Assembly (NCBI GenBank): GCA_037139195.1
Contig: JBAXGW010000019.1
Coordinates: 1 to 62,812 of the forward strand
Origin: Bacteroidota bacterium
Lineage (GTDB): Bacteria > Bacteroidota > Bacteroidia > Bacteroidales > JAHJDW01
DNA: 62,812 nt
Direction of reading: 5' to 3'
Shown here: positions 26,386 through 42,917 of the stretch, piece by piece
Layout: each line of letters begins with the position of its first letter
How positions within the stretch are numbered: the first letter of the stretch is position 1
Position numbers and translations under genes: made by a program
Notes under the pieces: generated by a model
Seen by the model: only the letters and a program-made list of their open reading frames with translations
Database searches by the model: none
What the model was told of the DNA's origin: nothing

Positions 26386-26390
26386 TTTGT

Positions 26391-27550: not shown

Positions 27551-28909
27551 ATGGAAAAGACAAGATATGAACGTCCACTTATAAAAAAATTGGATGCAGG
27601 AATGCCTAACAAATTTGGTCTACGTACCGAGTATACTCCAATGACCCAAATTGACGGAGTATCGGTAAAAGATATTATTAAAGAATATGGTTCGCCTGTA
27701 TTTGTTATTTCTGAACGTTTTATTCGTTCAAATTATCGTAATGCAAAAAGAGCTTTCACAACACGTTATCCAAAAGTGCAATTTGCATGGTCGTATAAAA
27801 CAAACTACTTAAATGCTGTTTGTAATGTATTTCATCAAGAAGGTTCTTGGGCAGAGGTGGTTTCTGGATTCGAATATCAGAAAGCTCTAGCAAATGGAGT
27901 TCCAGGTAAAAACATTATTTTTAATGGCCCTGCAAAAACAAGAGAAGATTTACAGTTAGCAATCAACAATGAATCCTTAATTCATATCGATCATTTAGAT
28001 GAGTTGTATATGATTATCGAACTTGCCGACGAAATGAACAAACGTCCGAAAGTAGCTATTCGTGTAAATATGGATACTGGTATTTATCCAATGTGGGATC
28101 GATTTGGATTTAACTATGAAAATGGACAAGCTTGGGACGCATTGAATAAAATTATGATGTCGAAAAAGCTTGATTTGATGGGTTTACACTCACATATTGG
28201 AACGTTTATGCTTGCTCCTTGGGCTTATTCAAATGCTGCACTTAAATTAGCCGACTTAGCTCTTGGTTTGCAAAAGAAATTCAACCACGAAATTAAATAT
28301 ATTGATTTAGGTGGTGGTTTTCCTTCGAAGAATACACTTAAAGGTGCATTCCTTCCAGGTGCCGATTCTTGCCCTTCTTTCGACGAATTTGCAGAAGCTA
28401 TTTCTACAGCATTAATCAATTCTGGTTTTAATACCGAAAATTTGCCTATGCTAGTGCTTGAAACAGGACGTGCACTTATCGACGAAGCTGGTTATTTAAT
28501 AAGTTCGGTTATTGCAAACAAACGCTTATCGGCTGGCAGAAGAGCTACTATTTTGGATGCAGGTGTAAATATTTTATTTACTTCATTCTGGTATGATCAT
28601 AAGATTTCTCCAGCTCAACCATTTACTCATTATACCGAAGATACGGTGCTGTATGGTCCTTTATGTATGAATATCGACATTATTCGCGAAAGCATAAATC
28701 TTCCTTTGTTAAATAAAGGCGATAGTGTAGTTGTTCAGCATGTTGGTGCATACAATATGACTCAATGGATGCAATTTATAACCATGAGACCAAATGTGGT
28801 ATTGATTGATATGCAAGGTAAAACGCATCTAATTCGTCAGAACGAAACTAAAGATACCATTGTTAGCTTGGAAAAATTACCTGAACATTTAACCAAATTT
28901 GAGTTATAA
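27551..28909 (+). CDS. PLP-dependent decarboxylase, Orn/DAP/Arg decarboxylase family 2 (fold-type III)
   Basis: PLP-lysine motif FAWSYKTNY (AxKxN), the glycine-rich GGGF loop (IDLGGGFPS) and a C-terminal beta domain. Confidence 0.8.
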   Translation: MEKTRYERPLIKKLDAGMPNKFGLRTEYTPMTQIDGVSVKDIIKEYGSPVFVISERFIRSNYRNAKRAFTTRYPKVQFAWSYKTNYLNAVCNVFHQEGSWAEVVSGFEYQKALANGVPGKNIIFNGPAKTREDLQLAINNESLIHIDHLDELYMIIELADEMNKRPKVAIRVNMDTGIYPMWDRFGFNYENGQAWDALNKIMMSKKLDLMGLHSHIGTFMLAPWAYSNAALKLADLALGLQKKFNHEIKYIDLGGGFPSKNTLKGAFLPGADSCPSFDEFAEAISTALINSGFNTENLPMLVLETGRALIDEAGYLISSVIANKRLSAGRRATILDAGVNILFTSFWYDHKISPAQPFTHYTEDTVLYGPLCMNIDIIRESINLPLLNKGDSVVVQHVGAYNMTQWMQFITMRPNVVLIDMQGKTHLIRQNETKDTIVSLEKLPEHLTKFEL

Positions 28910-29131: not shown

Positions 29132-29509
29132 ATGAAAGCTTTTTTATTTTCTCTTATTCTTGTAATTACTTCCGCTGTTTCAAGCTATGCGTGTGAATTT
29201 CGTTTTGAAATTGTAAGCGAGCAAAAAACTACCTATAAAATAGGTGATGAGGTTATTGTAAAAGTAAAACTTATCGCATTTCATCCGTTTTGTGCTGAAG
29301 ATTTAAAGAATGTTAAATTTACTACTGAAGGAGTTGATGTCTTGGGGACAACTGATTGGCAATTGGTTTCTACAAGTGTTTACGAAAGAAAGGTTAAAAT
29401 GAGAATAACAGGTACAGCAACTGGTGAAGCAAAGTTAACTGCCACTCGATTATGCCTTAAAATGGGCGGAACTGGAACAATTGTGATAAACTCTGAACCA
29501 AAAAAATAA
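29132..29509 (+). CDS. Small secreted/lipoprotein-like hypothetical protein with 3 conserved-looking Cys
   Basis: Signal peptide ending ..SSYAC. A beta-rich 125-aa protein. A TAgcTTTG -7-like motif lies ~45 bp upstream. Confidence 0.4.
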   Translation: MKAFLFSLILVITSAVSSYACEFRFEIVSEQKTTYKIGDEVIVKVKLIAFHPFCAEDLKNVKFTTEGVDVLGTTDWQLVSTSVYERKVKMRITGTATGEAKLTATRLCLKMGGTGTIVINSEPKK

Positions 29510-29518
29510 ACGATATAT

Positions 29519-30727
29519 ATGAAAAGATTATTAATTTTATTCTTTACTTTAGCTTTGGGTATGGGGAGTTTCTCATACCCAATGTTTGTTTATGCACAAC
29601 AAGGAAACGATGAATTTAAAACTCCCTCCGCTGATGAGTTTAAATCGGTTGACAAAAATGAATTCAAATCAGTAGATAAAAATGAATTTAAGTCAGTTGA
29701 TAAAAATGAATTTAAAAAAGAGACAAAAGGAAGCAAATCAGAGAATAAAAAGGACAATGAATTTAAAGAGGCTTCATCTGATGAGTTTGTTTCAAAAGAA
29801 GAATTTACTAAAATTTCGGAATCTAAAACTGGAGGTTGTTCCGGCTGCTCTGGATGTCCAAGCAAAACAGAAACCATTATTGATTATAGACCATTGTATG
29901 AAGTATTATGGATACTTGCTTTTGCAGTTTTAGCTGGAGTTTTTGTTCGATTTAAATTTACTCGAAACTTAAGAAATGTATTTCTGTTAAGTTCTTTAAT
30001 TTACTTGGGCTTTTATAAATATGGATGTCCGTGTATGATTTCGAGTTTTGAGGATTTTGTATTGTTATTTACAGGTAATTATACAAGTTGGTTTAATTAT
30101 GTATGGTTTTTAGGCTTAATTCCAATTACCTACATTTTTGGAAGAGTATGGTGTGGATGGGTTTGTCATCTTGGTGCATTGCAAGAATTTATTCATTTAC
30201 CTGCAAAATTTAATGTTTTTTCAGGTTATAAAGCTCAAAGAATAATGCGCTACTTGAGTTATGTATTAACTCTTGCATTAATTTTACAGATAATTATTCA
30301 GAAAAAAATATTTTGGTGTTCAATCGATCCGTTTGTGCCAATTTTTACTATGAATTTTAAATACGATTATACATTAATGAATTATATTTTAATTGGCACT
30401 CTGATTATTACCTCTCTTTTTTCGTATCGTCCTTTTTGTAGAGCGGCTTGCCCAGTTGGATTGGTTTTAAGTTGGATTTCATTAGTACCTGGCGCTTCAA
30501 TTATTGGTGTTAATAATCATTCATGCACAAGTTGCAAATCTTGTAATTCGGCTTGTAAAATAGATGCTATTACTAGAAATAATAAGTTAAGTAAGATAGA
30601 TAATAAAGAATGCATCGTTTGTGGCGATTGTCTTGATTCTTGCAATATTACGTCCCTGTCTTTTGTTCGCAATTGCAAATCAAAGGGGAACACAGTAATT
30701 GTTGAATGTAAAAAGGATTGTGTTTAA
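29519..30727 (+). CDS. NapH/MauN-like membrane polyferredoxin (4Fe-4S binding) with an N-terminal periplasmic EFK-repeat and CSGCSGC extension
   Basis: CGWVCHLG and FCRAACPVG transmembrane CxxxC(P/H) motifs. Two C-terminal CxxCxxCxxxC ferredoxin motifs (CTSCKSCNSAC; CIVCGDCLDSC). A tandem 24-bp DNA repeat at ~29609-29731 encodes the EFKSVDKN units. Confidence 0.7.
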   Translation: MKRLLILFFTLALGMGSFSYPMFVYAQQGNDEFKTPSADEFKSVDKNEFKSVDKNEFKSVDKNEFKKETKGSKSENKKDNEFKEASSDEFVSKEEFTKISESKTGGCSGCSGCPSKTETIIDYRPLYEVLWILAFAVLAGVFVRFKFTRNLRNVFLLSSLIYLGFYKYGCPCMISSFEDFVLLFTGNYTSWFNYVWFLGLIPITYIFGRVWCGWVCHLGALQEFIHLPAKFNVFSGYKAQRIMRYLSYVLTLALILQIIIQKKIFWCSIDPFVPIFTMNFKYDYTLMNYILIGTLIITSLFSYRPFCRAACPVGLVLSWISLVPGASIIGVNNHSCTSCKSCNSACKIDAITRNNKLSKIDNKECIVCGDCLDSCNITSLSFVRNCKSKGNTVIVECKKDCV

Positions 30728-30745
30728 TCTTTTGGATTTTTAGAA

Positions 30746-30786
30746 TAAAAAAAAGACCTAGTTTCAATTTTCTAGGTCTTTTTTGT
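30746..30786. terminator. Bidirectional rho-independent terminator
   Basis: aaaaaaaa-agacctag-loop-ctaggtct-tttttt. Confidence 0.65.
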
Positions 30787-30800
30787 TGTTTTAAAAAATG

Positions 30801-31574
30801 TTATTTTTTAACAATAATTTTTGTTTTAATATCACCACTGTTTCTTTTAACTGAAACAAAGTATACGCCTTCAGCAATGTCATTAATATTTACGTTTAAA
30901 ATTCCAGAAGCATTGCTATAGTTTTTAGAAACAACAACTTGTCCATTAACATTATACATTTCTAATTTAGTATCTTCTGCTTTAGAACCTAAGTTGATGT
31001 TTAACATATTTGAAGCTGGATTTGGATAAACCATAATAGAAGAAGTTTCGTTATCTTCAACGTTAGTAGTAGTAGGAGTCCATGTTAAAGACATTGCTGT
31101 GTAGTTAGTTGTAGCAGTAGTTACACCTGTATTAGCAGTAGCACCTTTTGTAAAAGTAAAATAACTTACTGGACCAGCTGTGTTCGACCAAGCCATTTGA
31201 ATACCCACTTTGTAAGTTCCATCAGCTACAAGTGTTTGATTAACATCTTTTCCATTCCAGGTAAGAGCTAAAGGGGTAGTGTGATTTGCTAGAGTTGCTC
31301 CAGTTGTGGCATCAACTACGTTTTCAGCAGATTTAGTAATCCAAGTTGCTAAATATTGCTTGCGAGCAACTGCTTGTCTTAAAAGAGTTTTAACAAATAC
31401 GCCATTTGCGTCTTCAATCCAAACAGCTACAACATGTTTTGGTGAGTATGTTCCCGCTCCTGATGGAGACGCTGTTGTAACATTAAAAGCCATTGTTCCT
31501 GCAGTTTGAGCAAACGATTTTAAACCAAAAGCAATAAAAATTGCAATAGTAAATAATGTAGAAATTTTTTTCAT
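30801..31574 (-). CDS. DUF2271-like secreted protein with an ApbE-type flavinylation motif (DATTGAT) and a T9SS C-terminal sorting domain
   Basis: Signal peptide. HVVAVWIEDANGVFVKTL DUF2271-like core. DATTGAT matches the Dxx(S/T)GA(T/S) FMN-acceptor motif. C-terminal IMVYPNPASNMLNINL...GVYFVSVK Por_Secre_tail. Confidence 0.6.
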   Translation of the reverse strand: MKKISTLFTIAIFIAFGLKSFAQTAGTMAFNVTTASPSGAGTYSPKHVVAVWIEDANGVFVKTLLRQAVARKQYLATWITKSAENVVDATTGATLANHTTPLALTWNGKDVNQTLVADGTYKVGIQMAWSNTAGPVSYFTFTKGATANTGVTTATTNYTAMSLTWTPTTTNVEDNETSSIMVYPNPASNMLNINLGSKAEDTKLEMYNVNGQVVVSKNYSNASGILNVNINDIAEGVYFVSVKRNSGDIKTKIIVKK

Positions 31575-31814
31575 AAATGATATAGTTTTTAGTTAATTTT
31601 AGCTAATATAAAAATATTTTAGATGTCTTCAAAACGACTTGCAATTTTTTTTTAAGAAAAAATCATTAAATTTTTTTAATGTTTCTCCTTTTAATCAATA
31701 AATGTAGCAATTCCTATAAAAATAATAGGATTGTGAAGATTTATTCCTTTTTTTATTATTTGGAATTATTATAAATAGCAGTTTGTTTAATTAAAAAAGG
31801 AATCAATTGTTTTT

Positions 31815-31841
31815 TTGACATGTAATTTTTCGATATATTTG
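31815..31841 (+). promoter_or_regulatory. Putative Bacteroidota sigma-A type promoter (TTG ... TAtaTTTG) for the cytochrome operon
   Basis: TTGaca at 31815-31820 and TATATTTG at 31834-31841, ~35 bp upstream of the first operon gene. Confidence 0.3.
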
Positions 31842-31874
31842 ATAGGATAAAATTAAAATTAACCGTGTTTTTAT

Positions 31875-32288
31875 ATGAATAAACTATCTAAATTATTACT
31901 TCTAACAGCATGTTCTGTTGTTATTTTTAGCTGCGAAAAAGCTACAATTGAATTCAATGACAAAGGTGTAACCAAAGTAGTTAAACCTATAGGTGCTGGT
32001 GCAGATTCTGTTCGTTTTAGTGCAGCTATTTATCCGCTTTTCGAAGCAAATTGTCAAAGCTGTCATGGTGGTTCTGGTGGTTTTACTATAACTAATGTAA
32101 CTACTGCTCACCAAGAAATAATGAATATTAATCTAGCTACTCCTGGTACTATAATTCCTGGTGACCCTGCAAATAGTGGAATTATGACTAAGTTTACTAC
32201 AACTGGCGATCACAATGGCGTTGTAGTTACGCAGCCTAATATTGATTTATTAAGTACGTGGATTTCGCAAGGAGCAAAAAACAATTAA
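31875..32288 (+). CDS. Mono-heme c-type cytochrome lipoprotein
   Basis: Lipoprotein-type signal (LLTACSVVIFSC) and a single CQSCH heme c motif. Confidence 0.5.
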   Translation: MNKLSKLLLLTACSVVIFSCEKATIEFNDKGVTKVVKPIGAGADSVRFSAAIYPLFEANCQSCHGGSGGFTITNVTTAHQEIMNINLATPGTIIPGDPANSGIMTKFTTTGDHNGVVVTQPNIDLLSTWISQGAKNN

Positions 32289-32315
32289 TTTACAGAAACT
32301 AAATTTTAAAATAAA

Positions 32316-33296
32316 ATGAATAAAAAATTTATAATAATATTGTTTAGTATTGTTTGCAGCTTTAATATGTTTGCTCAAACAACAGATTCAGTTGCTGATG
32401 CAGCAGCCGCAGAAAAAGCAGAAGGAAAAAAAGCTGTTAGAGACCCATGGGCTTGTAACGTTATTGTTGATAATCAAACTACAAATACAAATACTAAGGG
32501 TAGTATGGAATTTATGATTCATCATCGTTTTGCAAATTTCTCACAAGGTTTAGATAACCTATATGGTATTTATGGTTCTTCTAATATCAGATTAGGTATT
32601 ACTTATGCCGTTACTGATAAAATAATGATTGGTTTTGGGTCTGAAAAAGACAACAAACAACAAGAATTTACAGGAAAAGTTAAGTTTTTGGATCAAAACA
32701 GAGCGGGTAGTGTACCAGTTTCAGTAGCTTTATTCGGAAATGCTTGTATTAATACAAACAAAAAAGAAACTTGGGGCGATGGATTTAAATTTGATGATAA
32801 ACTTTCGTACTTTGGTCAATTAATGGTTTCTCGTAAGTTTTCTGATCGTTTAACATTTCAAGTAGCTGGATGCTTTAGCCATTTTAATAAAGTAGAGAGT
32901 AATAAAAATAAAACGGTAAAAATTACCACTGACACTGTTGCAGGAACAACTACTACTGCAACAACTGTTACATATAAAAACAAATATGCAAATGAAGCTT
33001 TTGGCGTTTCTTGTGGTGGTAGATTTAAATTTTATAATGAAATGTCTTTGGTTGCAGAATATAATCAACCGCTTTTAAATTTAGATTTTACTAAAGTTGA
33101 AAATTCAGATATTTTAAAACCAAAACCAAATCTTGTATTAGGAGTTGAGGTTGCTACTAGCACCCATGCTTTCCAAATATTTGTAGCTTCATCTAAAGGG
33201 ATTACAGCACAAAACAATTTTGTTAAAAATCAAGTAGATTACACAGATGCCAAGCAATTGTTAATTGGTTTTAATATCACTGTTAGATTAAACTAA
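32316..33296 (+). CDS. Outer-membrane beta-barrel protein (candidate porin partner of the cytochromes)
   Basis: Signal peptide, alternating beta-strand pattern, and a terminal aromatic/hydrophobic strand (ITVRLN). Sits immediately upstream of the multi-heme cytochrome. Confidence 0.5.
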   Translation: MNKKFIIILFSIVCSFNMFAQTTDSVADAAAAEKAEGKKAVRDPWACNVIVDNQTTNTNTKGSMEFMIHHRFANFSQGLDNLYGIYGSSNIRLGITYAVTDKIMIGFGSEKDNKQQEFTGKVKFLDQNRAGSVPVSVALFGNACINTNKKETWGDGFKFDDKLSYFGQLMVSRKFSDRLTFQVAGCFSHFNKVESNKNKTVKITTDTVAGTTTTATTVTYKNKYANEAFGVSCGGRFKFYNEMSLVAEYNQPLLNLDFTKVENSDILKPKPNLVLGVEVATSTHAFQIFVASSKGITAQNNFVKNQVDYTDAKQLLIGFNITVRLN

Positions 33297-33366
33297 TTTT
33301 TCAACTTAAAAATTTCATTACTTCAATATTGAATATATTATTGTTTAACTCATAAAAATCAACAAA

Positions 33367-34374
33367 TTGAATAAAAAAAGAATAATACTATTTATTAACG
33401 TATTATTATTATTTATAGTTTTTGGGTTGATAGCTTATCTTCAACACAAACCAGTAGAAATAATAAAGGCAGGCGTTAAACATGAATACACCAGCAAAGC
33501 AGAGAATCAAAATTGTTTGAAGTGTCACGGTGTTCATAAATATGAATGTACGAATCCAGATGATTCTACACAACAAGCATTCAAGAAAATGTATGCAGAA
33601 AATGTTATTGATACAACAGCATACTATCACTCCAACCATTATGATTTTAAGTGTAGTGATTGCCATTCTGCTGATTATAAAAAAACACCTCACAATCCTG
33701 CATTAAAATTTGAAGAAATTAGTGCTTGTATCGATTGCCATGGCGAAGATACTACGTATGCAAAATTTCATTTCGACTCAATAAATGTTGATTATGGGAA
33801 GAGCATACATGCCACTAAACTTGGGAAAGACTTTAGTTGCTGGAGTTGTCATAATTCCCATACATATAAAACTCAATACAAAGATTCTTCAAAAACAGTT
33901 GAACAAGCTATTGAATATGCAAATGCAATGTGTTTGAGTTGTCATACTAGTAATGATAGAATGCAATATTTTGGTGATGAAAAAACCGATATAACTAAAA
34001 AACACCAATGGCTTACAAATCAAGATGCTCATTTCAAGAAAGTAAGATGCATTGATTGTCATACAGAGCCTAATTCAAATTCTGATGTCGCTCATAATTT
34101 AGTGCCGAAAGAAAAGGCTATTAGAAAATGTATTACTTGTCACGCCCCAAACTCAAAAACGTTAAACAATTTGTATTTAACTAGAAAGTCTATTCAAGCT
34201 GAAAAGCTCGGGTTTACACATCCGGAGTTGGTTAAAGACGCAAATGTTATTGGAGCAAATCAGAATAATTACCTTTCAATAATTGCATTGTCTATCATTG
34301 GATTAATGATTGTTGGATTAACAGTACATATTATTTTTAGAATTAAACTAAGCAAGAAAAATGGGAAATCATAA
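33367..34374 (+). CDS. Membrane-anchored heptaheme c-type cytochrome
   Basis: Seven CxxCH motifs (CLKCH, CSDCH, CIDCH, CWSCH, CLSCH, CIDCH, CITCH), an N-terminal TM anchor and a C-terminal TM helix. Confidence 0.8.
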   Translation: MNKKRIILFINVLLLFIVFGLIAYLQHKPVEIIKAGVKHEYTSKAENQNCLKCHGVHKYECTNPDDSTQQAFKKMYAENVIDTTAYYHSNHYDFKCSDCHSADYKKTPHNPALKFEEISACIDCHGEDTTYAKFHFDSINVDYGKSIHATKLGKDFSCWSCHNSHTYKTQYKDSSKTVEQAIEYANAMCLSCHTSNDRMQYFGDEKTDITKKHQWLTNQDAHFKKVRCIDCHTEPNSNSDVAHNLVPKEKAIRKCITCHAPNSKTLNNLYLTRKSIQAEKLGFTHPELVKDANVIGANQNNYLSIIALSIIGLMIVGLTVHIIFRIKLSKKNGKS

Positions 34375-34963
34375 ATTATATTTATATCCACTTTGGCTAC
34401 GTTTATGGCATGTAACTAATGCCTTGCTATGCCTAACATTAATGTTTACTGGTGGTTTTATGCATTTTGGATCAAATATTATAAGTTTTGCTATAGCAGT
34501 AAAAATTCATAATGTAGTTGGAATTATATTATTAGTTAATTATACCATTTTTGTGTTTGGAAACCTTATTACTAATAATGGGAATCATTATATACTAATA
34601 TTTAAAGGATTATTTAAAAGAATTTTTACTCAATTAAGGTATTATTCTTTTGGAATGTTTAAAGGCGAGGAAACTCCTTTTCCTGTAAGCGAAGAGAATA
34701 AGTTTAATCCTGTTCAACAAATAACATATTACTCAATAATGTACGCTTTGCTTCCAATATTAGGAATTACAGGCATTGCAATGCTATTTCCAGAAAAAGT
34801 AATATTTGAATTGTTTTCAATAAAAGGTATTGTATTAATTGATTTTGTTCATTTAATAGGCGGATTTTGTATCGTGTTATTTCTAGTAATTCATCTTTAC
34901 TTTTCAACGGTTGGCGAAAAAATATCTTCGCATTTCAAAAGTATAGTTACTGGATGGCACTAA
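34361..34963 (+). CDS. Di-heme b-type cytochrome membrane subunit (Ni/Fe-hydrogenase/FdhC/PhsC-like cytochrome b family)
   Basis: Four TM helices with conserved His ligands (LWHVTN, HNVVG, HLIGG, HLYF). Overlaps the preceding gene by 14 bp. Confidence 0.6.
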   Translation: MGNHKLYLYPLWLRLWHVTNALLCLTLMFTGGFMHFGSNIISFAIAVKIHNVVGIILLVNYTIFVFGNLITNNGNHYILIFKGLFKRIFTQLRYYSFGMFKGEETPFPVSEENKFNPVQQITYYSIMYALLPILGITGIAMLFPEKVIFELFSIKGIVLIDFVHLIGGFCIVLFLVIHLYFSTVGEKISSHFKSIVTGWH

Positions 34964-35018
34964 TTTTGTAAAATAAAACAAACTTAATTATAATTATTAA
35001 TTTAAAAACGGAGGTAAA

Positions 35019-35423
35019 ATGAAAACTAAATTAGTATTTTTTAACTTAGCAGCTCTTGTTATTATTGTTGCACTTACTACAGCTTTTTCTGCAGGAAAAG
35101 AACCATGGGTTATTCCAGCAAAATACAAAGCAATGAAAAACACTGTAAAATCAAATGCAGATAACATTAAAGTTGGTAAAGCTTTATGGGATAAACAATG
35201 CAAAAGTTGTCATGGTGGAGCTGGTAAAGGTGATGGCGTAAAAGCTAAAGGTTTGAAAACAAGTTGTGGTGATATGGCTGCTGCTGCTTTCCAAGCACAA
35301 ACAGATGGCGAAATTTATTTCCAATCATTTATTGGAAGAAATGAAATGCCTAATTTTGAAAAGAAAATTGCAGATGAAACTGATAGATGGAGTGTAGTGA
35401 ATTATATACGTTCATTGAAGTAA
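35019..35423 (+). CDS. Class I c-type cytochrome (c551/c552-like)
   Basis: Signal/anchor sequence, a CKSCHGG heme motif and a distal Met-containing segment (EMPNF). Confidence 0.7.
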   Translation: MKTKLVFFNLAALVIIVALTTAFSAGKEPWVIPAKYKAMKNTVKSNADNIKVGKALWDKQCKSCHGGAGKGDGVKAKGLKTSCGDMAAAAFQAQTDGEIYFQSFIGRNEMPNFEKKIADETDRWSVVNYIRSLK

Positions 35424-35559
35424 TTATTTTTTATTTTTCATATTTAATTAAAACCTAACAGAATTTATTCTGTTAGGTTTTTCACATATTGCTACTTCGT
35501 TTATAATTAAAATATCGTAAATTGCGTTTCTAAAAAGTACCCTCTAATCAATCTGATAG

Positions 35560-36786
35560 ATGAAACAAATAATCAAGTTTTTTTATTCTCGCACAAGCTA
35601 TAATATTAGTTTTTTTATTGCTTTTTCACTTGTGTTTTTGGGCTTTTTTCTAAATTATTTTACCGGAACTCATAAGCTGGTTTTAGATTGGCCTGTAAAT
35701 ATTATTGTGTTAATAGTTTTTGTTGCAATTATTGTTAATTTGAATATTTTTTCAAAAAACGCTATTGTTGCTTGGCTTTCAAGTATTCCTGCATCAATTT
35801 CAGCAATTTGCACTTATTCTTTTTTAGTGTTTTTAATGGGATTAATCCCCCAAAATAATCCTGAGGCTTCAAGTATTCTTTTTAAATTAGGGCTCACTGA
35901 TATTGTAAGCAGTTGGAGTTTTCTTCTTATTTCATTTTATTTACTTACAATTTTAGGCTTCGTTATAATGAAGCGCTTAAAGAAATTTAATTTCAGAAAT
36001 TCTGTTTTTATTCTTAATCACTTGGGTTTATGGATAACAGTCACTTCTGCTTTATTAGGTAGTAGTGATGTCTCAAAATACCAAATGTCTATTGCCGAAG
36101 GTCATAAGACAAATATTGTAACCAATGATCAATCAGAAATGTTTCAAATGCCTTTTGATATTCAGTTAATTGATTTTAAAATTGATGAATATATTCCTAA
36201 TATAATTTTAGTTAATCCAAACGATGGATTTATTATTAATGATAAAAAGGATAAAAGCTTTGAAATAAAGGAAAATGCGGTTCAAATATTGAAAAACTGG
36301 GAAATAAAAGTACTAAAGTATTATGAAAATGGCATTCCAAAGGACTCAAGTTATTCGCCGTCAAATGTGGAAGGAGCTGTCCCAGTTGCATATATTGAAG
36401 CTAAACTTGTTGGAGGCAATCAAAAAACGTTAAATGGATGGATTACAAGTGGTAGTAAATTTATTCCTCAACAAATTTTATATATCGAAAAAAATATTGC
36501 TATTGCAATGACTATTCCTACTCCAAAGAAATTTAGCTCAAGTGTTAAAATTTATGATAAAACTAATGTTTCAGATACTAAATTAATTGAAGTTAATAAG
36601 CCTCTGAGCGTTGGAAATTGGAAGATTTATCAAATTGGTTATGATGCAGAGAAAGGAAAATGGTCGAAAATTAGCACTTTTGAGATAGTAAATGACCCAT
36701 GGATTAATGGTGTTTATTTCGGAATTGGGATGTTGCTAATTGGAAGTTTATTGTTATTTTGGGTTGGTAAAACTAAAGAATTGTAA
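35560..36786 (+). CDS. Cytochrome c biogenesis protein ResB/CcsB (System II)
   Basis: N-terminal TM helices, a large periplasmic domain and a C-terminal TM. Directly precedes a CcsA homolog with a 2-bp gap. Confidence 0.55.
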   Translation: MKQIIKFFYSRTSYNISFFIAFSLVFLGFFLNYFTGTHKLVLDWPVNIIVLIVFVAIIVNLNIFSKNAIVAWLSSIPASISAICTYSFLVFLMGLIPQNNPEASSILFKLGLTDIVSSWSFLLISFYLLTILGFVIMKRLKKFNFRNSVFILNHLGLWITVTSALLGSSDVSKYQMSIAEGHKTNIVTNDQSEMFQMPFDIQLIDFKIDEYIPNIILVNPNDGFIINDKKDKSFEIKENAVQILKNWEIKVLKYYENGIPKDSSYSPSNVEGAVPVAYIEAKLVGGNQKTLNGWITSGSKFIPQQILYIEKNIAIAMTIPTPKKFSSSVKIYDKTNVSDTKLIEVNKPLSVGNWKIYQIGYDAEKGKWSKISTFEIVNDPWINGVYFGIGMLLIGSLLLFWVGKTKEL

Positions 36787-36788
36787 TT

Positions 36789-37592
36789 ATGAGCGGAGCA
36801 AATTTTCATACTTTTTATTTTATCATAATTTCATTATGGATTTGTGGTTTAGTTTTGTTTTTTTTAGAAAACAAAGAAAAAAGAAAAATATCTAATTTTG
36901 GGCTTGCTACAATTGCACTTGGAGTTGCAGTTGTGGGTTTTTATATAGGTTATTTATGGATATTATTAGAACGACCTCCAATGCGAACTTTAGGCGAAAC
37001 AAGATTATTGTATGCGCTTTTTGTCCCCATAATTGGATTCATTATTTTTTATCGATGGAAAATAAAATGGATGATAGTGTATAGCATTGTTTTAGCAGCT
37101 GTTTTTTTAACTATTGATTTTGTTATGCCCGAAGTTTTTAATAAAACTCTAATGCCAGCATTACAAAGCTTTTGGTTCGTTCCACATGTTATAGTATATA
37201 TTTTTGCTTATGCAATTTTAGGATTTTCAACTGTCATTGCTATTTGGGGACTATTCCTTTTGTATAAAAAAACGTTCAATACTGAGGTTTTATTTTTAGC
37301 TGATAATACCGTTTATGTTGGTTTTACATTCCTAACTTTAGGATTATTGTTTGGTGCACTTTGGGCAAAGGAAGCCTGGGGTAATTACTGGACTTGGGAT
37401 CCTAAAGAAACTTGGGCTTTCTTAACATGGCTAGGCTATTTATTATACATACATCTTCGAATACGACACAAAGATTCTATAAAAATTCCGTTAATAGTTC
37501 TTTCGGCTATTTTTGTAGTGCTAATAATATGTTGGTTTGGAATAAACTATCTTCCTTCAGCTCAAAATAGCGTTCATGTATATGCTAATTAA
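36789..37592 (+). CDS. ccsA: Cytochrome c biogenesis protein CcsA/ResC (System II haem lyase subunit)
   Basis: WWD-type motif AKEAWGNYWTWDPKETWAFLTW with conserved His residues in TM helices. Confidence 0.8.
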   Translation: MSGANFHTFYFIIISLWICGLVLFFLENKEKRKISNFGLATIALGVAVVGFYIGYLWILLERPPMRTLGETRLLYALFVPIIGFIIFYRWKIKWMIVYSIVLAAVFLTIDFVMPEVFNKTLMPALQSFWFVPHVIVYIFAYAILGFSTVIAIWGLFLLYKKTFNTEVLFLADNTVYVGFTFLTLGLLFGALWAKEAWGNYWTWDPKETWAFLTWLGYLLYIHLRIRHKDSIKIPLIVLSAIFVVLIICWFGINYLPSAQNSVHVYAN

Positions 37593-37614
37593 TAAATTAT
37601 TAAAAATATAAACT

Positions 37615-38073
37615 ATGAAATTTAAAAAAACATTTTCTGCTATAGCAATTGCAATTTGCTACGTAGTATTAGCTTCAAGCTGTGAAAGAGAAAACGAAGC
37701 TAGAAGTTCTGAATCTGGTGAAGACAGCCATAACACTGGTGTTGATTGTATGATTTGTCATAAAAAAGATGGTAATGGAAAAGGAATTTTTACTGTTGCA
37801 GGAACTGTTTATGATAGTATTCAAAAAAATATTGTTACTGGTGCTACTGTTAGACTGTATTCTGGTGCAAATGCCACAGGAACATTATTAGCTACAATTC
37901 CTAATGATCAAAGTGGTAATTTTTATATCTCTAATACTATTGATTTTACAAAGGATGTATATGTTAGTGTAAAATCGAGAAGCGGTAATATTAAAGAGAT
38001 GAACGGAAAAATTAAAACTGGAGCTTGTACCAGTTGTCATGGCACTACAACTGATGTTGTTTGGGTTAAATAA
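37615..38073 (+). CDS. Di-heme c-type cytochrome lipoprotein
   Basis: Lipoprotein-type signal (LASSC) and two CxxCH motifs (CMICH, CTSCH). The internal IVTGATV resembles a flavinylation core but lacks the leading Asp. Confidence 0.6.
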   Translation: MKFKKTFSAIAIAICYVVLASSCERENEARSSESGEDSHNTGVDCMICHKKDGNGKGIFTVAGTVYDSIQKNIVTGATVRLYSGANATGTLLATIPNDQSGNFYISNTIDFTKDVYVSVKSRSGNIKEMNGKIKTGACTSCHGTTTDVVWVK

Positions 38074-38117
38074 TTATTCAAATCTTTTTTAATCTAAAAC
38101 TTAATATTAAACCAAAC

Positions 38118-39122
38118 ATGAAAAAAGTACTTTTCGTTTTATTTATTATTTTTAATATTTCTTTAAATCTTAGAGCTCAAGAGGCTCCATTTAGAATTAA
38201 TGGATATATTCAAGGTTCAACCTATTCAATTGTTTATTTTGATAAGGAGAGTAGAGATTTTAAAAAAGAAATTGAATCGATTCTAGAACAATTTAACAAA
38301 TCTGTATCAATTTACGATTCAACATCTATTATCTCAAAAGTTAATAGAAATGTTCCAAATGTTCAATTAGATGAATATTTTATTACATGTTTTAATAAAT
38401 CTCTTGAAGTTTCTAAAGCAACTGATGGCGCTTTTGATATTACTGTTGGACCACTGGTAAATGCTTGGGGCTTTGGCAATAAAAATAAAGAGAAAATGGA
38501 TACAGCTAAAGTTAAAGCTATTCTCGAGCATGTGGGTTTTAATAAAGTTTCTATTAAAAATAATCTGTTAGTTAAAACAGATCCAGAAGTTATTATCGAT
38601 TTTAATGGAATTGCACAAGGATATTCGGTTGATGTCATAAGTAATTTTTTAAAATCGAAAAAAATCGAAAATTTCATTGTTGAAATAGGTGGAGAAGTAT
38701 ATGCTAATGGGAAAAAACCAAACGGGACATTTTGGACAGTAGGAGTAGAAAAGCCTAATGATAATAAAGATGGCAAAAATGATTTAGAGGCTATTGCAAA
38801 ACTAGAGAATTCTGCTTTAACAACCGCAGGTAATTATAGGAAGTTTTACATTGAGAATGGTATTAGATATTCACATACAATTAATCCAAAAACTGGTTTC
38901 CCTGCTAAAAACACTTTGTTAAGTGCTTCGGTATTTGCAAAAGAATGTATAATATGCGATGGATATGATACTCCATTTATGGTAATGGGATTAGAAAAAA
39001 CACTTGTATTTTTGAAAAAACATCCCGAAATACAAGCATATTTAATATATTCGGATGAAAAAGGTGATGTGAAAACATTTGAAACAGAAGGATTGAAAGA
39101 TATTTTAACTGAAAAAAAATAA
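38118..39122 (+). CDS. apbE: FAD:protein FMN transferase (ApbE family), periplasmic
   Basis: Signal peptide. ApbE motifs GAFDITVGPLVNAWGFG, DFNGIAQGYSVD and VEIGGEV. Confidence 0.8.
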   Translation: MKKVLFVLFIIFNISLNLRAQEAPFRINGYIQGSTYSIVYFDKESRDFKKEIESILEQFNKSVSIYDSTSIISKVNRNVPNVQLDEYFITCFNKSLEVSKATDGAFDITVGPLVNAWGFGNKNKEKMDTAKVKAILEHVGFNKVSIKNNLLVKTDPEVIIDFNGIAQGYSVDVISNFLKSKKIENFIVEIGGEVYANGKKPNGTFWTVGVEKPNDNKDGKNDLEAIAKLENSALTTAGNYRKFYIENGIRYSHTINPKTGFPAKNTLLSASVFAKECIICDGYDTPFMVMGLEKTLVFLKKHPEIQAYLIYSDEKGDVKTFETEGLKDILTEKK

Positions 39123-39127
39123 ACAAT

Positions 39128-39158
39128 AAAAAAACCACTAGAAATAGTGGTCTTTTTA
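39128..39158. terminator. Bidirectional rho-independent terminator
   Basis: aaaaaa-accacta-gaaa-tagtggt-cttttt. Confidence 0.65.
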
Positions 39159-39175
39159 TTGGCAAAAACAGTAAA

Positions 39176-39973
39176 TTAATTTACCACCAATTTATAGTTG
39201 AAGTTTTGATTGTTTCTTTGAACTTTAACAAAATAAACACCTTCAGCAAATTTGTTTAAATCAATTGATTTAATGCCTGATAATTGAGTAAATGATTCAG
39301 CGTAAACTTCCACTCCAATTGCATTAATTAATTGAATTTTTGTGTCGGCTTTATTGTCTCCTAACTCTAAATTTAACTTGTCAGTAGTAGGATTAGGAAA
39401 AATACTTACATTCATATTGTTATCATTAATTCCAACAGTTGAAGGAGTCCAAGTTAAAGTCATGCTTGTAAAGTATGTAGTAGCTGTAGGTGTTTTACTG
39501 TCAACTGATGTGCCTTTAACAAAAGGAATAGATATAGAAGATGTGCTTAAACCATCACTATCCCAAGCTATTTCTACCCATAATGTATAATTGCCATCAT
39601 CAACTAAAGTCCCTGACACATCCGTTCCATTCCAAGTGATAGATCGGGCTCCATTATCGTACAATGTTGCTCCAGTTGTAGCGTCTGTAGTATTTCCACC
39701 TGATTTTAAATTCCAAAGTGTCAAGTCACTGATTTGATTTACAGCGTATTTAAGCTTAGTTTTTACAAAAGCATTTGAGCTGTTTTCTATCCAAATTGCT
39801 ATAACATGTCCTGCCTCGTTTCCGGTTTCACATGGACCGCATGTAAAACCTTGAGTAGTAACAGAGAATGTTAATAAACCAGGTGTTTTAACTGCAAAAG
39901 CCTGAGTTGATAGAGCAATAATACATACAGCTATTGCACTTTTTAATAAATTTAAAGTAAAAATTTTTTTCAT
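39176..39973 (-). CDS. DUF2271-like secreted protein with an ApbE-type flavinylation motif (DATTGAT) and a T9SS C-terminal sorting domain. The likely start is the MKKIF Met.
   Basis: Paralog of the 30801-31574 gene (HVIAIWIENSSNAFVKTKL; DATTGATL; SIFPNPTTDKLNLEL...GVYFVKVQ). Confidence 0.6.
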   Translation of the reverse strand: MKKIFTLNLLKSAIAVCIIALSTQAFAVKTPGLLTFSVTTQGFTCGPCETGNEAGHVIAIWIENSSNAFVKTKLKYAVNQISDLTLWNLKSGGNTTDATTGATLYDNGARSITWNGTDVSGTLVDDGNYTLWVEIAWDSDGLSTSSISIPFVKGTSVDSKTPTATTYFTSMTLTWTPSTVGINDNNMNVSIFPNPTTDKLNLELGDNKADTKIQLINAIGVEVYAESFTQLSGIKSIDLNKFAEGVYFVKVQRNNQNFNYKLVVN

Positions 39974-40079
39974 ATTTTTTTTTATTTGTTTGTATTCTAT
40001 CATGCAAAATTAGTAAAATTTATTGATAAAAAGGATGAGTAATCAAACCCATCCTTTTTATAAATATGAACTAATGATT

Positions 40080-42917
40080 TTATTTAGTAATAAGCATTTT
40101 ACTTTGTATGCTTTTCCCGTTGCCAACAACATCAATATAATATAAACCATTATTAAAGTTGGTAATATCATAGTTAACAACTGAAACATTTTCAGTTTTG
40201 GTAATTTTCTTTTCAGATATCAATTGACCAAAAGTATTAAATATTTTTATTGTAACATCTCCAGAAACGGCTTCGCCTAAAGAAATATTAAAGTTACCAT
40301 TGCTAGGATTAGGATAAACATTGACCCCATTATTAGATGTAGGAGCGTGAACACCTACTGTGCCTTCTGGATTCCAAGCTGTAACGATATTAATTAAACT
40401 AGTATCTGAAACTAAACCATGAACATCAGCAGCTGTCCCTTTAACAAATACAGTATCCCAGTTACAACCAACACCATTGAAAGCAGGTGTAGTTACTCCA
40501 TTAGATGTTGTAGCAATTAAATGTTCAGTATGGTCATTAAGGTCTAATTTGATTTTATATTGACCGTCATTTACTAAGTTTCCAAACATATCTTTTCCAT
40601 CCCAAGTAAGATTATATGTGATAGTCCAGTTATTTACTGCTTTAGAATATTGAGATGCACCCGAAATTACGTCTGGAGCTAAGCCGCCAAAATCTTTTTC
40701 GTAGAAGAATAATTCATAAGCATGGTTAGCACCGTAATGAACAATTGTTTTAATAGGTTTATCATTCATATCAGTAATATATGCAGCAAATACAGAGCAA
40801 CTGTCATATTTAGGATTTGTATTTAAATTTTGAGCCGTTCTTTTAGTCGTAACTGCAACTGTTAAATTTCCTGCAGTTTTTGTTCCAGTCCATGATAATG
40901 CAGGGTAGGTTGTAGGTGTGTAAGATCCTGTGTTATATGTTGTACCTGTTGTTGTTGCAGTTGTTTTTCCTGTTCTATCGACAGCTTCGCCTTCAAAATC
41001 ATAAAGCATCTGAAGATTAGCAGTTGTTAATGGAGTTGTTATCGCATTTGGTGTGGCTTTAGCAGCTAGTTCTGCAGCTGTTTTACAAACATCCCAAACT
41101 CTAATTTCATCAATGTTACCATTAAAATATTCGCTTGTTATTTTAGTTGTTGTTACACCACCTGTTGTTGATTTAGTAGCTAGTTTTTGACCTCCAATAT
41201 ATTTAATACTTATAGGTGCAACTGTAGCCTTTACAACTAATGAATCTATAAACGAGCCATTTAAATAAAGTTTTAGCGAAGCATTATTGTATGTTAAAGC
41301 AAGATGATTCCAATGATTACTATGCAAAAGATTATATACTTTTTTGCTTAAATGCGTTGGGACCGTAGCTGCTAATGTATCAAATCCATAAGTAATTACA
41401 TGTGCATTGCTAATTGCAATATAAGGTGCTCTTCTGTATTTAGATGCTGTTGCACTGCCATCAACGCTGTCGTTTCCAAAAATGTAACCTGCAGAGGTAA
41501 GGCTGTTTGGCATTACAAATGCTTCAACAGTGAAGTTTTGACCTAAAATTGGACCATTGTTTATAGAAACATTTGTAGAGTCAATTCTTGAAAAATTCAT
41601 TGAATGAGTCTGATTTGTTGGATTCCAAGCCATACTTATATTCAATAAACTAGTATCAGAAACAGTTCCATGAACATCTGCAGCCATTCCTTTTACAAAA
41701 ACTGTATCCCAGTTGCAGCCAACACCATTGAACGCAGGCGTTGTGACCCCATTAGATGTTGTTGCAAGTAAATGTTCAGTATGGTCATTAAGGTCTAATT
41801 TCAATTTATATTGACCGTCGTTCACTAAATTGCCAAACATATCTTTTCCATCCCATGTAAGATTGTATGTAATTGTCCAGTTATTTACAGCTTTTGAATA
41901 TTGAGAAGCACCTGAAATTACATCTGGAGCCATTCCGCCAAAGTCTTTTTCGTAGAAGAATAATTCATACGCATGGTTAGCACCATAATGAACAAGTGTT
42001 TTAATAGGTTTGTCATTCATGTCAGTTATATAGGCCGCAAATACAGAACAACTATCGTATTTTGGATTTGTATTTAAGTTTTGTGCTGTTCTTTTAGTTG
42101 TTACAGAAAAAGTTAATGTGCCATCTGTTTTTGTGCCAGTCCATGATAATGCAGGAAAAGATGTAGCTGTATATGATTCCGTACTATTAGTTGAGCCGGT
42201 GATAGTTGCTGTTGAATTACCTGTTTCATCAATAGCATCTCCATTAAAATCATAAAGCATTTTAAGATTTGGAGTAGTTAGAGGGGCTGTTATTGCATTT
42301 GGTGATGCGCTTGCAGTCAATTCAGCTGCTGATTTACAAACGTCCCAAACTCTAATTTCATCAATATTGCCATTAAAATATTCGCTTGTTATTTTAGTAG
42401 TTGTTACTCCACCAGTTGTTGATTTAGTAACTAGTTTTTGACCTCCAATATATTTAATTCTGATTGGAGCAACTGTAGTCTTTACAACTAATGAGTCTAT
42501 AAAAGAGCCATTTAAATAGAGTTTTAATGCAGTATTATTATAAGTTAAAGCAATATGATTCCAATGATTACTATGCAAAAGGTTATATACTTTTTTGCTT
42601 AAATGTGTTGGGACAGCAGCCACTAATGTATCGAATCCGTAAGTGATTACATGAGCATTGCTAACAGAAATATAAGGAGCTCTTCTGTATTTTGATGCTG
42701 TTGCGCTGGCATCTACACTGTCATTGCCAAAAATATATCCAGCAGAAGTGAGGCTAATTGGCTGAATAAAAGCCTCAATTGTGAAGTTTTGACCTAAAAT
42801 AGGTCCATTGTTAATTGTTACGTTTGTTGAATCAATTCTCGAAAAATTCAAAGAGTTTTGTGCGCCTGCTGCTCCAACAAAAAACAGCAAAATTAATCCA
42901 AGTAGGTGTTTTCTCAT
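40080..42917 (-). CDS. Large secreted protein: two tandem [LamG/concanavalin-like + DUF2271-like flavinylation (DVISGAS)] modules followed by a T9SS C-terminal sorting domain
   Basis: Signal peptide. Two ~420-aa modules about 90% identical. LamG hallmarks (NGNIDEIRVWD). DVISGAS in each module. C-terminal VNVYPNPSNGNFNISL...GLYYIDVV Por_Secre_tail. Confidence 0.65.
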   Translation of the reverse strand: MRKHLLGLILLFFVGAAGAQNSLNFSRIDSTNVTINNGPILGQNFTIEAFIQPISLTSAGYIFGNDSVDASATASKYRRAPYISVSNAHVITYGFDTLVAAVPTHLSKKVYNLLHSNHWNHIALTYNNTALKLYLNGSFIDSLVVKTTVAPIRIKYIGGQKLVTKSTTGGVTTTKITSEYFNGNIDEIRVWDVCKSAAELTASASPNAITAPLTTPNLKMLYDFNGDAIDETGNSTATITGSTNSTESYTATSFPALSWTGTKTDGTLTFSVTTKRTAQNLNTNPKYDSCSVFAAYITDMNDKPIKTLVHYGANHAYELFFYEKDFGGMAPDVISGASQYSKAVNNWTITYNLTWDGKDMFGNLVNDGQYKLKLDLNDHTEHLLATTSNGVTTPAFNGVGCNWDTVFVKGMAADVHGTVSDTSLLNISMAWNPTNQTHSMNFSRIDSTNVSINNGPILGQNFTVEAFVMPNSLTSAGYIFGNDSVDGSATASKYRRAPYIAISNAHVITYGFDTLAATVPTHLSKKVYNLLHSNHWNHLALTYNNASLKLYLNGSFIDSLVVKATVAPISIKYIGGQKLATKSTTGGVTTTKITSEYFNGNIDEIRVWDVCKTAAELAAKATPNAITTPLTTANLQMLYDFEGEAVDRTGKTTATTTGTTYNTGSYTPTTYPALSWTGTKTAGNLTVAVTTKRTAQNLNTNPKYDSCSVFAAYITDMNDKPIKTIVHYGANHAYELFFYEKDFGGLAPDVISGASQYSKAVNNWTITYNLTWDGKDMFGNLVNDGQYKIKLDLNDHTEHLIATTSNGVTTPAFNGVGCNWDTVFVKGTAADVHGLVSDTSLINIVTAWNPEGTVGVHAPTSNNGVNVYPNPSNGNFNISLGEAVSGDVTIKIFNTFGQLISEKKITKTENVSVVNYDITNFNNGLYYIDVVGNGKSIQSKMLITK
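40376..42895. repeat. Direct tandem duplication of ~1.26 kb inside the gene (units at roughly 40376-41634 and 41636-42895, ~90% nucleotide identity)
   Basis: Long collinear stretches of the two DNA segments align directly (for example 40381-40900 against 41641-42160). Confidence 0.8.

Follow-up and report, generated by a model that had tools for sequence, protein, structure and literature searches.

A block of 14 genes at positions 29132–42917 of a 62,812-bp metagenome-assembled Bacteroidota contig (G+C ~31%; the whole stretch is referred to hereafter as the window, and encodes the proteins MEI7595409.1 and MEI7595417.1) reads as a composite extracytoplasmic electron-transfer locus, in which electrons would be exported to carriers that are flavinylated by the transferase ApbE and displayed by a type IX secretion system (T9SS). 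We assign this reading a probability of roughly 0.5. Judged by its sequence, the block is a conserved cytochrome/barrel module plus a rare flavin add-on and not one co-conserved operon. The module comprises c-type cytochromes, a cytochrome b and an outer-membrane β-barrel of the DUF5777 family; the add-on comprises ApbE, a NapH-like polyferredoxin and three DUF2271 proteins that end in T9SS C-terminal domains (CTDs). Genes for such T9SS-DUF2271 proteins recur beside ApbE, DUF5777 and c-type cytochromes in loci that are independent of one another and have diverged deeply, and it is this recurrent co-location in unrelated loci, together with domain identities, motifs, gene order and the CTD fold seen in a structural model, from which the reading is built. 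That ApbE flavinylates these particular proteins, and that the T9SS exports them, we infer from established knowledge of the families.

Domain calls were made with Pfam and NCBIfam profile searches and haem counts were taken from CXXCH motifs; signal peptides, lipoboxes, a C-terminal helix, the NapH-like motifs and the haem-b ligands were read by eye from the translations. The 13 domain calls of an earlier first-pass annotation of this DNA, among them the NapH-like protein, the cytochromes, ResB/CcsA and ApbE, were all upheld by these profiles, and the block's open reading frames (ORFs) match the coordinates given there.

The flavin add-on centers on the three DUF2271 genes, all of which lie on the − strand. 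DUF2271a (30801–31574, −) combines a DUF2271 domain (PF10029, 29.3 bits against a cut-off of 27.3) with a type A CTD (PF18962, 56.4 bits; TIGR04183, 7e-14), and DUF2271b (39176–40003, −, 275 aa) does likewise (DUF2271, 39.7 bits against the same cut-off of 27.3; Por_Secre_tail, 53 bits against 27); both carry the motif DATTGAT. The third gene (40080–42917, −) encodes a 945-aa T9SS cargo in which a Laminin_G_3 domain (1e-27) followed by a DUF2271-like domain with the motif DVISGAS occurs twice, ahead of a type A CTD (PF18962, 53.3 bits). The DUF2271-like match of this largest protein (18.7 bits) falls under the Pfam cut-off; alignment of the protein to a profile of the small-protein family using hhalign gives a probability of 98.3% (E 1.5e-14) and places DVISGAS directly on DATTGAT. 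The proposal that the block encodes three DUF2271-like proteins, predicted to be secreted, with an ApbE acceptor motif and a Por_Secre_tail is therefore borne out, for the 945-aa protein by way of hhalign and below the Pfam threshold.

ApbE flavinylates DUF2271 at [S/T]GA[S/T], a site that usually has a D at −3, as demonstrated experimentally for a proteobacterial member (Meheust 2021, PMC8238504). Within the window, the pattern D..[ST]GA[ST] occurs at four sites, exclusively in the three DUF2271/Por_Secre_tail proteins (two as DATTGAT, two as DVISGAS), against a chance expectation of ~0.1 (a rough estimate from amino-acid frequencies); the 945-aa protein is predicted to have two flavinylation sites. 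All three proteins have the profile matches of type A cargo (PF18962, 53–56 bits, cut-off 27; TIGR04183, 36–52 bits, cut-off 23), the CTD spans 75 aa and its matches reach the final residues in each case, and a conserved Gln is found at the predicted mature N-terminus behind the Sec signal. A model of the 275-aa protein (predicted local distance difference test score 87.5) displays two β-sandwiches, the C-terminal of which superposes on solved T9SS CTDs, including the translocon-bound CTD of NucA. No DUF2271 structure is present in the PDB, and the modeled DUF2271 domain returned only generic Ig, FN3 and FlgD matches. Two further Por_Secre_tail proteins are encoded in the window (6947–9058, − and 18523–20493, −; one with an Omp28 domain, the other without a further Pfam domain), bringing the T9SS cargo genes in these 62.8 kb to five, and their presence suggests that the organism uses a T9SS.

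The combination of DUF2271 with a CTD extends well beyond this contig. An exhaustive profile search for the T9SS-DUF2271 family returned, for clustering at 50% identity, at least 495 clusters with E ≤ 1e-30 and 4,223 with E ≤ 1e-10, and the CTD is present in 131 of 143 retrieved representatives. In a motif-blind sample of 159 family domains defined by hidden Markov models, the canonical motif is found in 93 and near-variants such as DAITGST in ~30; in the family alignment the motif residues D107, A108, T110 and G111 belong to the small set of positions that are invariant or almost so. Several members are multi-domain proteins of 570–2350 aa, with four DUF2271-like domains (P0184, P0203, P0228), three (P0165, P0288) or two (P0166, P0167, P0204), and these are candidates, from their sequences, for multi-flavinylated surface proteins in a diderm phylum. 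Multi-flavinylated proteins have been described for FMN_bind domains only, mainly in Gram-positives, in a survey that also documents the modular use of flavinylation and cytochromes (PMC8238504). Fusions to SprB repeats (L146, 794 aa) or to LamG or PKD domains (P0040) occur in some of the family.

The transferase that would load these proteins is encoded in the same block. The ApbE gene (38118–39122, +; PF02424, 8.5e-80) specifies a signal peptide and a predicted periplasmic enzyme, and close homologues of it (2e-94 to 4e-125) are convergent to DUF2271-CTD genes in three metagenome loci (L109, L129 and L169). The NapH-like gene, 7.4 kb from ApbE, encodes a NapH/NosR-like membrane polyferredoxin (29519–30727, +; Fer4_5, PF12801, 47.2 bits, cut-off 22) whose best NCBIfam matches are NapH/MauN (5e-20) and NosR (6.5e-18). 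It has two CX3C(P/H) membrane motifs and a C-terminal 2×[4Fe-4S] domain, which matched an RnfB-type ferredoxin in a search of the PDB. Its periplasmic N-terminus (29600–29800, residues ~30–100) is made up of a KE-rich tandem repeat (NEFKSVDK, three to four copies) followed by GGCSGCSGCP, and this repeat sits where relatives of the protein have an FMN_bind domain; Pfam detects an FMN_bind domain in none of the 14 block proteins, the NapH-like protein included. The possibility that the NapH-like protein belongs to a nos or nitrate-reductase context was rejected, NosZ and Nap genes being absent among the window ORFs that were annotated (a subset of all ORFs). The gene before it encodes a secreted 125-aa protein (29132–29509, +; signal peptide read from the translation), ends 10 bp 5′ of the NapH-like gene and has no Pfam or NCBIfam match; a homologue (9e-21) lies directly 3′ of the class I cytochrome c gene in one DUF5777 locus elsewhere (L038).

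The other layer, the cytochrome/barrel module, begins with a lipoprotein cytochrome c of 110 aa (31875–32288, +) that has a lipobox and a single haem motif (CQSCH), followed by the DUF5777 outer-membrane β-barrel (32316–33296, +; DUF5777, 9e-64) of ~14 strands, a model of which resembles FapF and the small substrate channels KdgM, NanC and COG4313; its invariant residues include H70, R71 and H284, and H189 is nearly invariant. Next is a heptahaem cytochrome c (33367–34374, +; TTG start) with seven CXXCH motifs and matches to Cytochrome_C7, c3 and NrfB-like families, ending in a hydrophobic helix that reads as a C-terminal transmembrane anchor. The 3′ end of this gene is overlapped by the start of a gene for a di-haem cytochrome b of the PhsC/FdnI/HydC type (34361–34963, +; Ni_hydr_CYTB, PF01292, 1.4e-24), the nearest NCBIfam model for which, thiosulfate-reductase cytochrome b (NF011582), is matched at 177 bits, below its cut-off of 204. 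His17, His50, His164 and His179 are placed as its di-haem ligands by sequence reading. The protein is a candidate quinol site, and the heptahaem protein and cytochrome b together look like an inner-membrane quinol:cytochrome c unit. A class I monohaem cytochrome c (35019–35423, +; Cytochrom_C and Cytochrome_CBB3, ~1e-9 to 1e-10) is the candidate periplasmic carrier. Haem attachment is catered for by an adjacent pair of System II cytochrome c maturation genes, ResB/CcsB (35560–36786, +; PF05140, 5.3e-17) and CcsA (36789–37592, +; PF01578, 5.2e-31), an adjacency that identifies System II. The final cytochrome of the block is a di-haem lipoprotein (37615–38073, +; two CXXCH motifs, a lipobox, weak cytochrome matches) with an acid-rich stretch (CERENE) after the lipobox Cys. 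It also contains a near-motif, NIVTGAT, that is the flavinylation motif with N replacing D and is not kept in the orthologue from the closest related locus (L086).

Conservation of the module was assessed with a DUF5777 profile built from 30 aligned homologues and applied to one genome per species, which matched at least 168 stretches; the best 80 of the 168 were used, with 10 kb on each side, and were compared by searches with the window proteins and by ORF clustering. All 80 loci have the DUF5777 barrel, and 77 have the one-haem lipoprotein directly upstream of it. Next in frequency are the seven-haem cytochrome (56 loci, usually with cytochrome b directly after), class I cytochrome c (55), a six-haem lipoprotein (51), a Crp/Fnr-type regulator (50) and cytochrome b (44), followed by NrfC, NrfD and an unannotated protein of ~296 aa (34, 33 and 31 loci, respectively) and by a fused ResB-CcsA (22 loci; split genes as in the window occur in L052 and L059). 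The NrfC–NrfD–296-aa unit represents another quinol module, alternative or additional, of which a locus may hold up to three copies and which sometimes stands beside the seven-haem protein. Among the 20 most recurrent neighbor families inspected (11 core families plus syntenic housekeeping genes), no terminal enzyme, whether a molybdoenzyme, NosZ, NrfA or other, was found. The module is distributed through Bacteroidales, Saprospiraceae, Lewinellaceae, Rikenellaceae and Marinilabiliales, with isolates including Carboxylicivirga linearis FB218 (L080) and Yeosuana aromativorans (P0156), whereas the matched genomes labelled Draconibacterium orientale and Paludibacter propionicigenes are metagenome-assembled; examples of the cluster, described from L006–L085, are L088 (9604–15676) and L089 (5102–19110). 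The window has all four parts of the module (one-haem lipoprotein, DUF5777, quinol module and class I cytochrome c) in the common order, and is without the Crp/Fnr regulator, the six-haem lipoprotein and NrfCD.

These counts redefine the immediate partner of the barrel. The first-pass annotation had likened the order of the barrel and the adjacent heptahaem cytochrome to that of porin–cytochrome conduits, and this pairing does not stand: the invariant neighbor of the barrel is the one-haem lipoprotein, and the heptahaem protein pairs instead with cytochrome b and is missing from 24 of the 80 barrel loci (some of which are incomplete at their ends). The MtrAB/Pcc form of the porin–cytochrome analogy was accordingly set aside, given a small barrel, an inner-membrane anchor on the heptahaem protein and the absence of the latter from many barrel loci. 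A haem motif is present in each of the 78 proteins of the one-haem lipoprotein family (18 as CX4CH, one as CX3CH, the rest as CXXCH), and all finish at the C-terminus with W-I-x-Q-G-A-x-N-N; in a check for a lipoprotein surface-export signal, +2 was the one position at which an acidic residue is common (69%). The six-haem lipoprotein (L032, 8324–9403; L052, 8472–9518), of which the window has no copy, has a mature part that opens with a collagen-like Gly-X-Y run (GPAGKDGLNGQDGIDGQDG) and weakly matches domains II/IV of MtrC/MtrF. DUF5777 has no mention in the searchable literature, and the DUF5777/cytochrome gene cluster seems never to have been described before.

To relate the flavin genes to this module from the opposite direction, a second scan used a profile of the DUF2271 part only against JGI metagenomes and returned 80 loci; the scan pattern required the flavinylation motif, such that its near-universality in this set is circular. 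DUF5777 is adjacent to the DUF2271 gene in seven of these loci (L104, L108, L133, L144, L146, L148, L169) and ApbE in five (L109, L112, L129, L163, L169), with the window's convergent DUF2271-CTD/ApbE arrangement repeated in L109, L129 and L169; multihaem cytochromes flank the DUF2271 gene in four more (L092, L093, L099, L101). Expressed as 7/61, the DUF5777 adjacency has a binomial P of ~2e-10 under an assumed chance adjacency of 0.25%, a figure that ignores phylogenetic non-independence. The association follows the CTD: among genes flanked by 6 kb or more, 9 of the 29 that bear a CTD have ApbE, DUF5777 or a cytochrome of three or more haems within 5 kb, versus 0 of the 19 without a CTD. Neighbors of the CTD-less DUF2271-like genes (RF2, sigma-54, LptB and others) were considered as a functional signal and rejected as housekeeping synteny on sequence reading.

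Two of these loci are compact clusters on a single strand. L169 brings together DUF5777 (2e-86), a lipoprotein cytochrome c, a YceI-like protein, DUF2271-CTD and ApbE, and L148 two small cytochromes, DUF5777, a Reeler-domain protein with one CXXCH, and DUF2271-CTD. The gene between barrel and flavoprotein (L169, 2070–2615; L144, 4868–5422; L148, 2158–2715) is YceI-like in two of the three loci in which it was delineated and encodes a Reeler-domain protein in the third; Reeler domains are associated with the ferric-chelate reductases of eukaryotes. The barrels of L144, L148 and L169 are just 23–25% identical to that of the window, meaning that the association spans deep branches of the DUF5777 family. 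In the closest relative of the window (L086/L006, barrel 46% identical) the core is followed by a DUF2271-like CTD protein, two more CTD proteins, a di-haem lipoprotein and ApbE. Elsewhere, a protein of 574 aa that combines two DUF2271 domains with a CTD is encoded ~3 kb upstream of the core in L045, and L052, on a Bacteroidales chromosome, has after its DUF5777 core and split ResB/CcsA a NapH-like protein (16312–17466) bearing DAVSGAT, a flavinylatable type akin to NosR/PceC.

The proposed mechanism would run as follows. At the inner membrane, cytochrome b and the anchored heptahaem protein would form a quinol-interacting pair at which quinol is oxidized, perhaps also by the NapH-like protein, and electrons from this pair would pass to the periplasmic class I cytochrome c and from there to the outer-membrane pair of one-haem lipoprotein and DUF5777 barrel. 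The flavin add-on would form a second layer, comprising periplasmic ApbE, the NapH-like polyferredoxin and the three DUF2271 proteins with their four motif sites. The DUF2271 proteins would reach the periplasm via Sec, ApbE would attach flavin mononucleotide (FMN) by a covalent bond to the motif's last Thr/Ser, and the type A CTD would route the folded flavoproteins through the T9SS to the cell surface or the medium, where they would serve as outermost carriers fed by the cytochrome module, the NapH-like protein, or both. By pure inference, electrons may cross the outer membrane at the DUF5777/lipoprotein pair, flow outward and meet an extracellular acceptor such as Fe(III), humics or another oxidant. 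A more specific proposal, that Bacteroidota possess a phylum-specific form of extracellular electron transfer (EET) with FMN-DUF2271 proteins (one to four flavin domains, in some cases fused to lectin or SprB-type surface modules) displayed by the T9SS and wired to the quinone pool through a DUF5777–monohaem lipoprotein junction of a new type in place of an MtrB-like sheath, strikes us as doubtful, and metal reduction or respiration is a possible role of the block.

A number of observations weigh against an electron-exporting locus of this kind. The flavin genes are rare where the barrel is the anchor (ApbE in 1 of the 80 loci, a NapH-like gene in 1, DUF2271 in 2–3; about 3–4 loci overall), such that the idea of a conserved neighborhood stands for the cytochrome core, present in 44–77 of 80 loci, and fails for ApbE, NapH-like and DUF2271 genes, which do not form one co-conserved unit with it. 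From the DUF2271 side, 20 of the 29 long-flank CTD-bearing metagenome loci have no redox neighbor, and of six T9SS-DUF2271 genes inspected on long contigs, five stand alone or have no redox neighborhood. The motif itself is unrecognizable in 27 of the 159 family domains sampled, and in the closest relative the DUF2271-like CTD protein (L086, 6553–7362) has a degenerate motif, DALTSST, with ApbE 4.5 kb away; by sequence, either flavinylation has been lost there or the site is non-canonical. The window's ApbE might serve other substrates, such as NQR encoded elsewhere in the genome, and no T9SS machinery gene lies in the window. Lastly, a barrel of ~14 strands is too small to sheath a cytochrome as MtrB does, which leaves the outer-membrane step without known precedent.

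The alternative that fares best, though we still consider it rather unlikely, is assimilatory: the surface DUF2271 flavoproteins would be ferric or metal reductases that free Fe(II) for uptake, with DUF5777 as a possible uptake channel. In published work DUF2271 is tied mostly to periplasmic PepSY-like/DUF4198 iron-reduction clusters (PMC8238504) and to Fur-regulated iron acquisition in Proteobacteria (PMC12004947), all that has been reported on its function dealing with iron acquisition under Fur control, and the window proteins would on this account be counterparts of the proteobacterial PepSY-like/DUF4198/DUF2271 ferric-reductase system. One metagenome locus (L112, 1467–7897) has just such a setting, which points toward metal acquisition: a thioredoxin-like gene precedes ApbE, DUF3570 and DUF2271-CTD, and directly beside these are genes for a Fur-family regulator and a TonB-dependent receptor. 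The DUF3570 protein there, from another ApbE-substrate family, is without a [ST]GA[ST] site, and L163 shares the ApbE–DUF3570–DUF2271 order. P0024, the sole one of the six long-contig loci with cytochromes and ResB-CcsA nearby, has a PepSY_TM-like gene ~7 kb from its DUF2271-CTD gene, and the likeness of the DUF5777 model to the small substrate channels would suit an uptake route. Set against this, the block of the window holds no TonB receptor, Feo, VIT1, Fur, PepSY or DUF4198 gene (no match to PF03929, PF16357 or PF10670 for the PepSY_TM/DUF4198 genes), and the module's quinol-dehydrogenase units, cytochromes and haem-attachment genes, with Crp/Fnr and not Fur as regulator, are more like the equipment of a respiratory-scale flux.

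Somewhat less probable again is an uncoupled mosaic, in which a periplasmic respiratory branch, an ApbE dedicated to NQR or other substrates, and DUF2271 proteins with an unrelated surface role have come together by chance or under loose co-regulation. The rarity of flavin genes in barrel-anchored loci and the mostly solitary placement of T9SS-DUF2271 genes among housekeeping genes would both be expected of such a mosaic, as would the frequency of T9SS cargo genes in this genome and the position of all three DUF2271 genes on the strand opposite to the cytochrome operon. Chance is harder to reconcile with the adjacency of DUF5777 and ApbE to T9SS-DUF2271 genes, which is far above expectation and holds between clades whose barrels share only a quarter or less of their residues, with the lack of that association in all 19 members without a CTD, with the same-strand clusters of L169 (which includes ApbE as well) and L148, and with the repetition of the combination in the closest relative.

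A reversed chain, similar in logic to iron oxidation of the Cyc2 type, we regard as improbable. In it, the surface flavoproteins and the outer-membrane cytochrome/barrel pair would accept electrons from a donor outside the cell (Fe(II), reduced humics, a partner cell or a cathode), and class I cytochrome c would relay them to an oxidase or the quinone pool. A monohaem cytochrome, a small barrel and a class I cytochrome c recall the Cyc2-to-Cyc1 layout, the module occurs in aerobic lineages (Saprospiraceae, Lewinellaceae) with NrfCD-type units, and the neighbor families inspected offer no recurrent terminal reductase; the cytochrome and barrel are separate genes here, however, flavin carriers and NapH-like proteins are best known from reductive, outward contexts (PMC8238504), and no sequence feature sets the direction. 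It is similarly improbable that the DUF2271-like domains are unflavinylated, structural Ig-like surface modules (adhesins or spacers) with the motif as a family relic, a view that draws on the generic Ig/FN3-like sandwich with its FlgD_ig matches, on the fusions to SprB repeats, LamG and PKD-like domains, and on the motif-less members including DALTSST, but one that has to contend with near-invariant motif residues in D-A-x-T-G-A-T that are kept in most of the motif-blind sample, with the alignment of the motif onto that of the 945-aa protein, with recurrent ApbE adjacency, and with the identity of this motif to the experimentally proven ApbE site of DUF2271 (PMC8238504).

The arrangement of the block on the contig can be described in terms of three groups of genes. 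Nine genes, from the one-haem lipoprotein to ApbE (31875–39122), are all on the + strand with short gaps, and the 125-aa and NapH-like genes form a second + strand pair. DUF2271a is divergent from the cytochrome operon, separated from it by a 300-bp AT-rich intergenic region (31575–31874), and the other two DUF2271 genes are convergent on apbE; a terminator-like bidirectional hairpin with a 17-pair stem (39124–39161) lies between apbE and DUF2271b. Promoter and terminator scans were at background level with the exception of this hairpin, which is itself suggestive at most, terminator-like sites in the region not exceeding shuffled expectation. The FNR/CRP-type palindrome TTGAT-N4-ATCAA was matched 11 times against 9.5 expected, and no match falls in the block's promoter regions. 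The block is flanked by housekeeping genes (purH, rlmN-like, adenosine deaminase and others), hence its boundaries are reasonable. Immediately upstream, on the + strand at 26143–28909, are genes for an 80-aa PqqD-like protein, an ATP-grasp enzyme and a pyridoxal phosphate-dependent Orn/DAP/Arg decarboxylase, which may be a small peptide-modification or metabolite cluster in its own right.

Should electron export to T9SS-displayed flavoproteins prove correct, these would be the first redox-cofactor cargo of the T9SS and the first case of ApbE-flavinylated proteins displayed at the surface of a diderm. Covalent flavinylation by ApbE is a well-established means of making electron carriers that work beyond the cytoplasm, and in diderms such carriers have until now been assigned to the periplasm or inner membrane. 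Two DUF families found in hundreds of lineages would acquire a function, the DUF5777/cytochrome module (at least 168 stretches in species-representative genomes) would gain a testable role, and Bacteroidota of sediments, soils, wastewater and guts would gain a candidate surface redox mechanism for iron reduction (in respiration or uptake), humics or electrodes. The claim that T9SS-delivered flavin carriers are not a described architecture agrees with the literature, in which we found no paper joining the T9SS to flavinylation or DUF2271, nor one linking it in substance with EET; the T9SS is mentioned neither in Meheust 2021 (PMC8238504) nor in the 2024 follow-up paper on flavinylation. A supposed link between the T9SS and iron in Cytophaga hutchinsonii was dropped, a review giving a Ca2+ and Mg2+ phenotype and not one for iron.

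Comparison with known systems places each part of the block in a familiar class. The DUF2271 proteins resemble type A CTD cargo (gingipains, mirolase, NucA, RemA, ChiA) in their Sec signal, their C-terminal PF18962/TIGR04183 match and the CTD fold of the model. Known T9SS cargo consists of hydrolases, adhesins and motility proteins; to our knowledge a covalent-flavin electron carrier is undescribed as T9SS cargo, and a literature search for one turned up none. As in the clusters of Meheust 2021, in which NapH-like systems were defined (PMC8238504), an extracytosolic ApbE, a DUF2271 with [S/T]GA[S/T], a NapH-like PF12801 protein and a mixture of flavin and cytochrome carriers are found together. 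The block departs from those clusters in that DUF2271 is fused to type A CTDs and is thus predicted to exit the periplasm, in that DUF2271 stands in the place of FMN_bind, of which there is no domain or protein here, and in that one cargo has two DUF2271 domains, with family members having up to four.

On the cytochrome side, the block shares with porin–cytochrome conduits (MtrCAB of Shewanella, Pcc of Geobacter) a barrel encoded beside c-type cytochromes with surface redox proteins at the end of the chain, yet the fixed partner of DUF5777 is a 110-aa monohaem lipoprotein in place of a decahaem wire, an inner-membrane anchor holds the heptahaem cytochrome alongside cytochrome b, and no sequence relationship was detected. 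The di-haem cytochrome b of HydC/FdnI/PhsC type with a periplasmic multihaem c protein is likened to CbcL/ImcH of Geobacter, differing in being two genes and not one fused protein and in having seven haems, not nine; by this analogy the cytochrome b/heptahaem pair is likely to be the entry point from the menaquinol pool. Cyc2 of Fe(II) oxidizers also couples one haem c to a small outer-membrane barrel and then to a periplasmic class I cytochrome c, in that case within one protein, whereas here there are two separate genes and the cytochrome is a lipoprotein. Finally, as in flavin-based EET of Firmicutes (Ndh2, EetA/B, PplA, FmnB), an ApbE/FmnB-type transferase would load the proposed outermost extracytoplasmic carrier; in the block there is no FMN_bind protein (PplA), Ndh2 or EetAB, the organism is a diderm, the carrier is DUF2271 and its delivery is proposed to be by the T9SS. 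The parts are each of a known kind, and it is the combination of flavin-motif DUF2271 T9SS cargo with a DUF5777/cytochrome module that, from the sequences compared here, appears to be undescribed.

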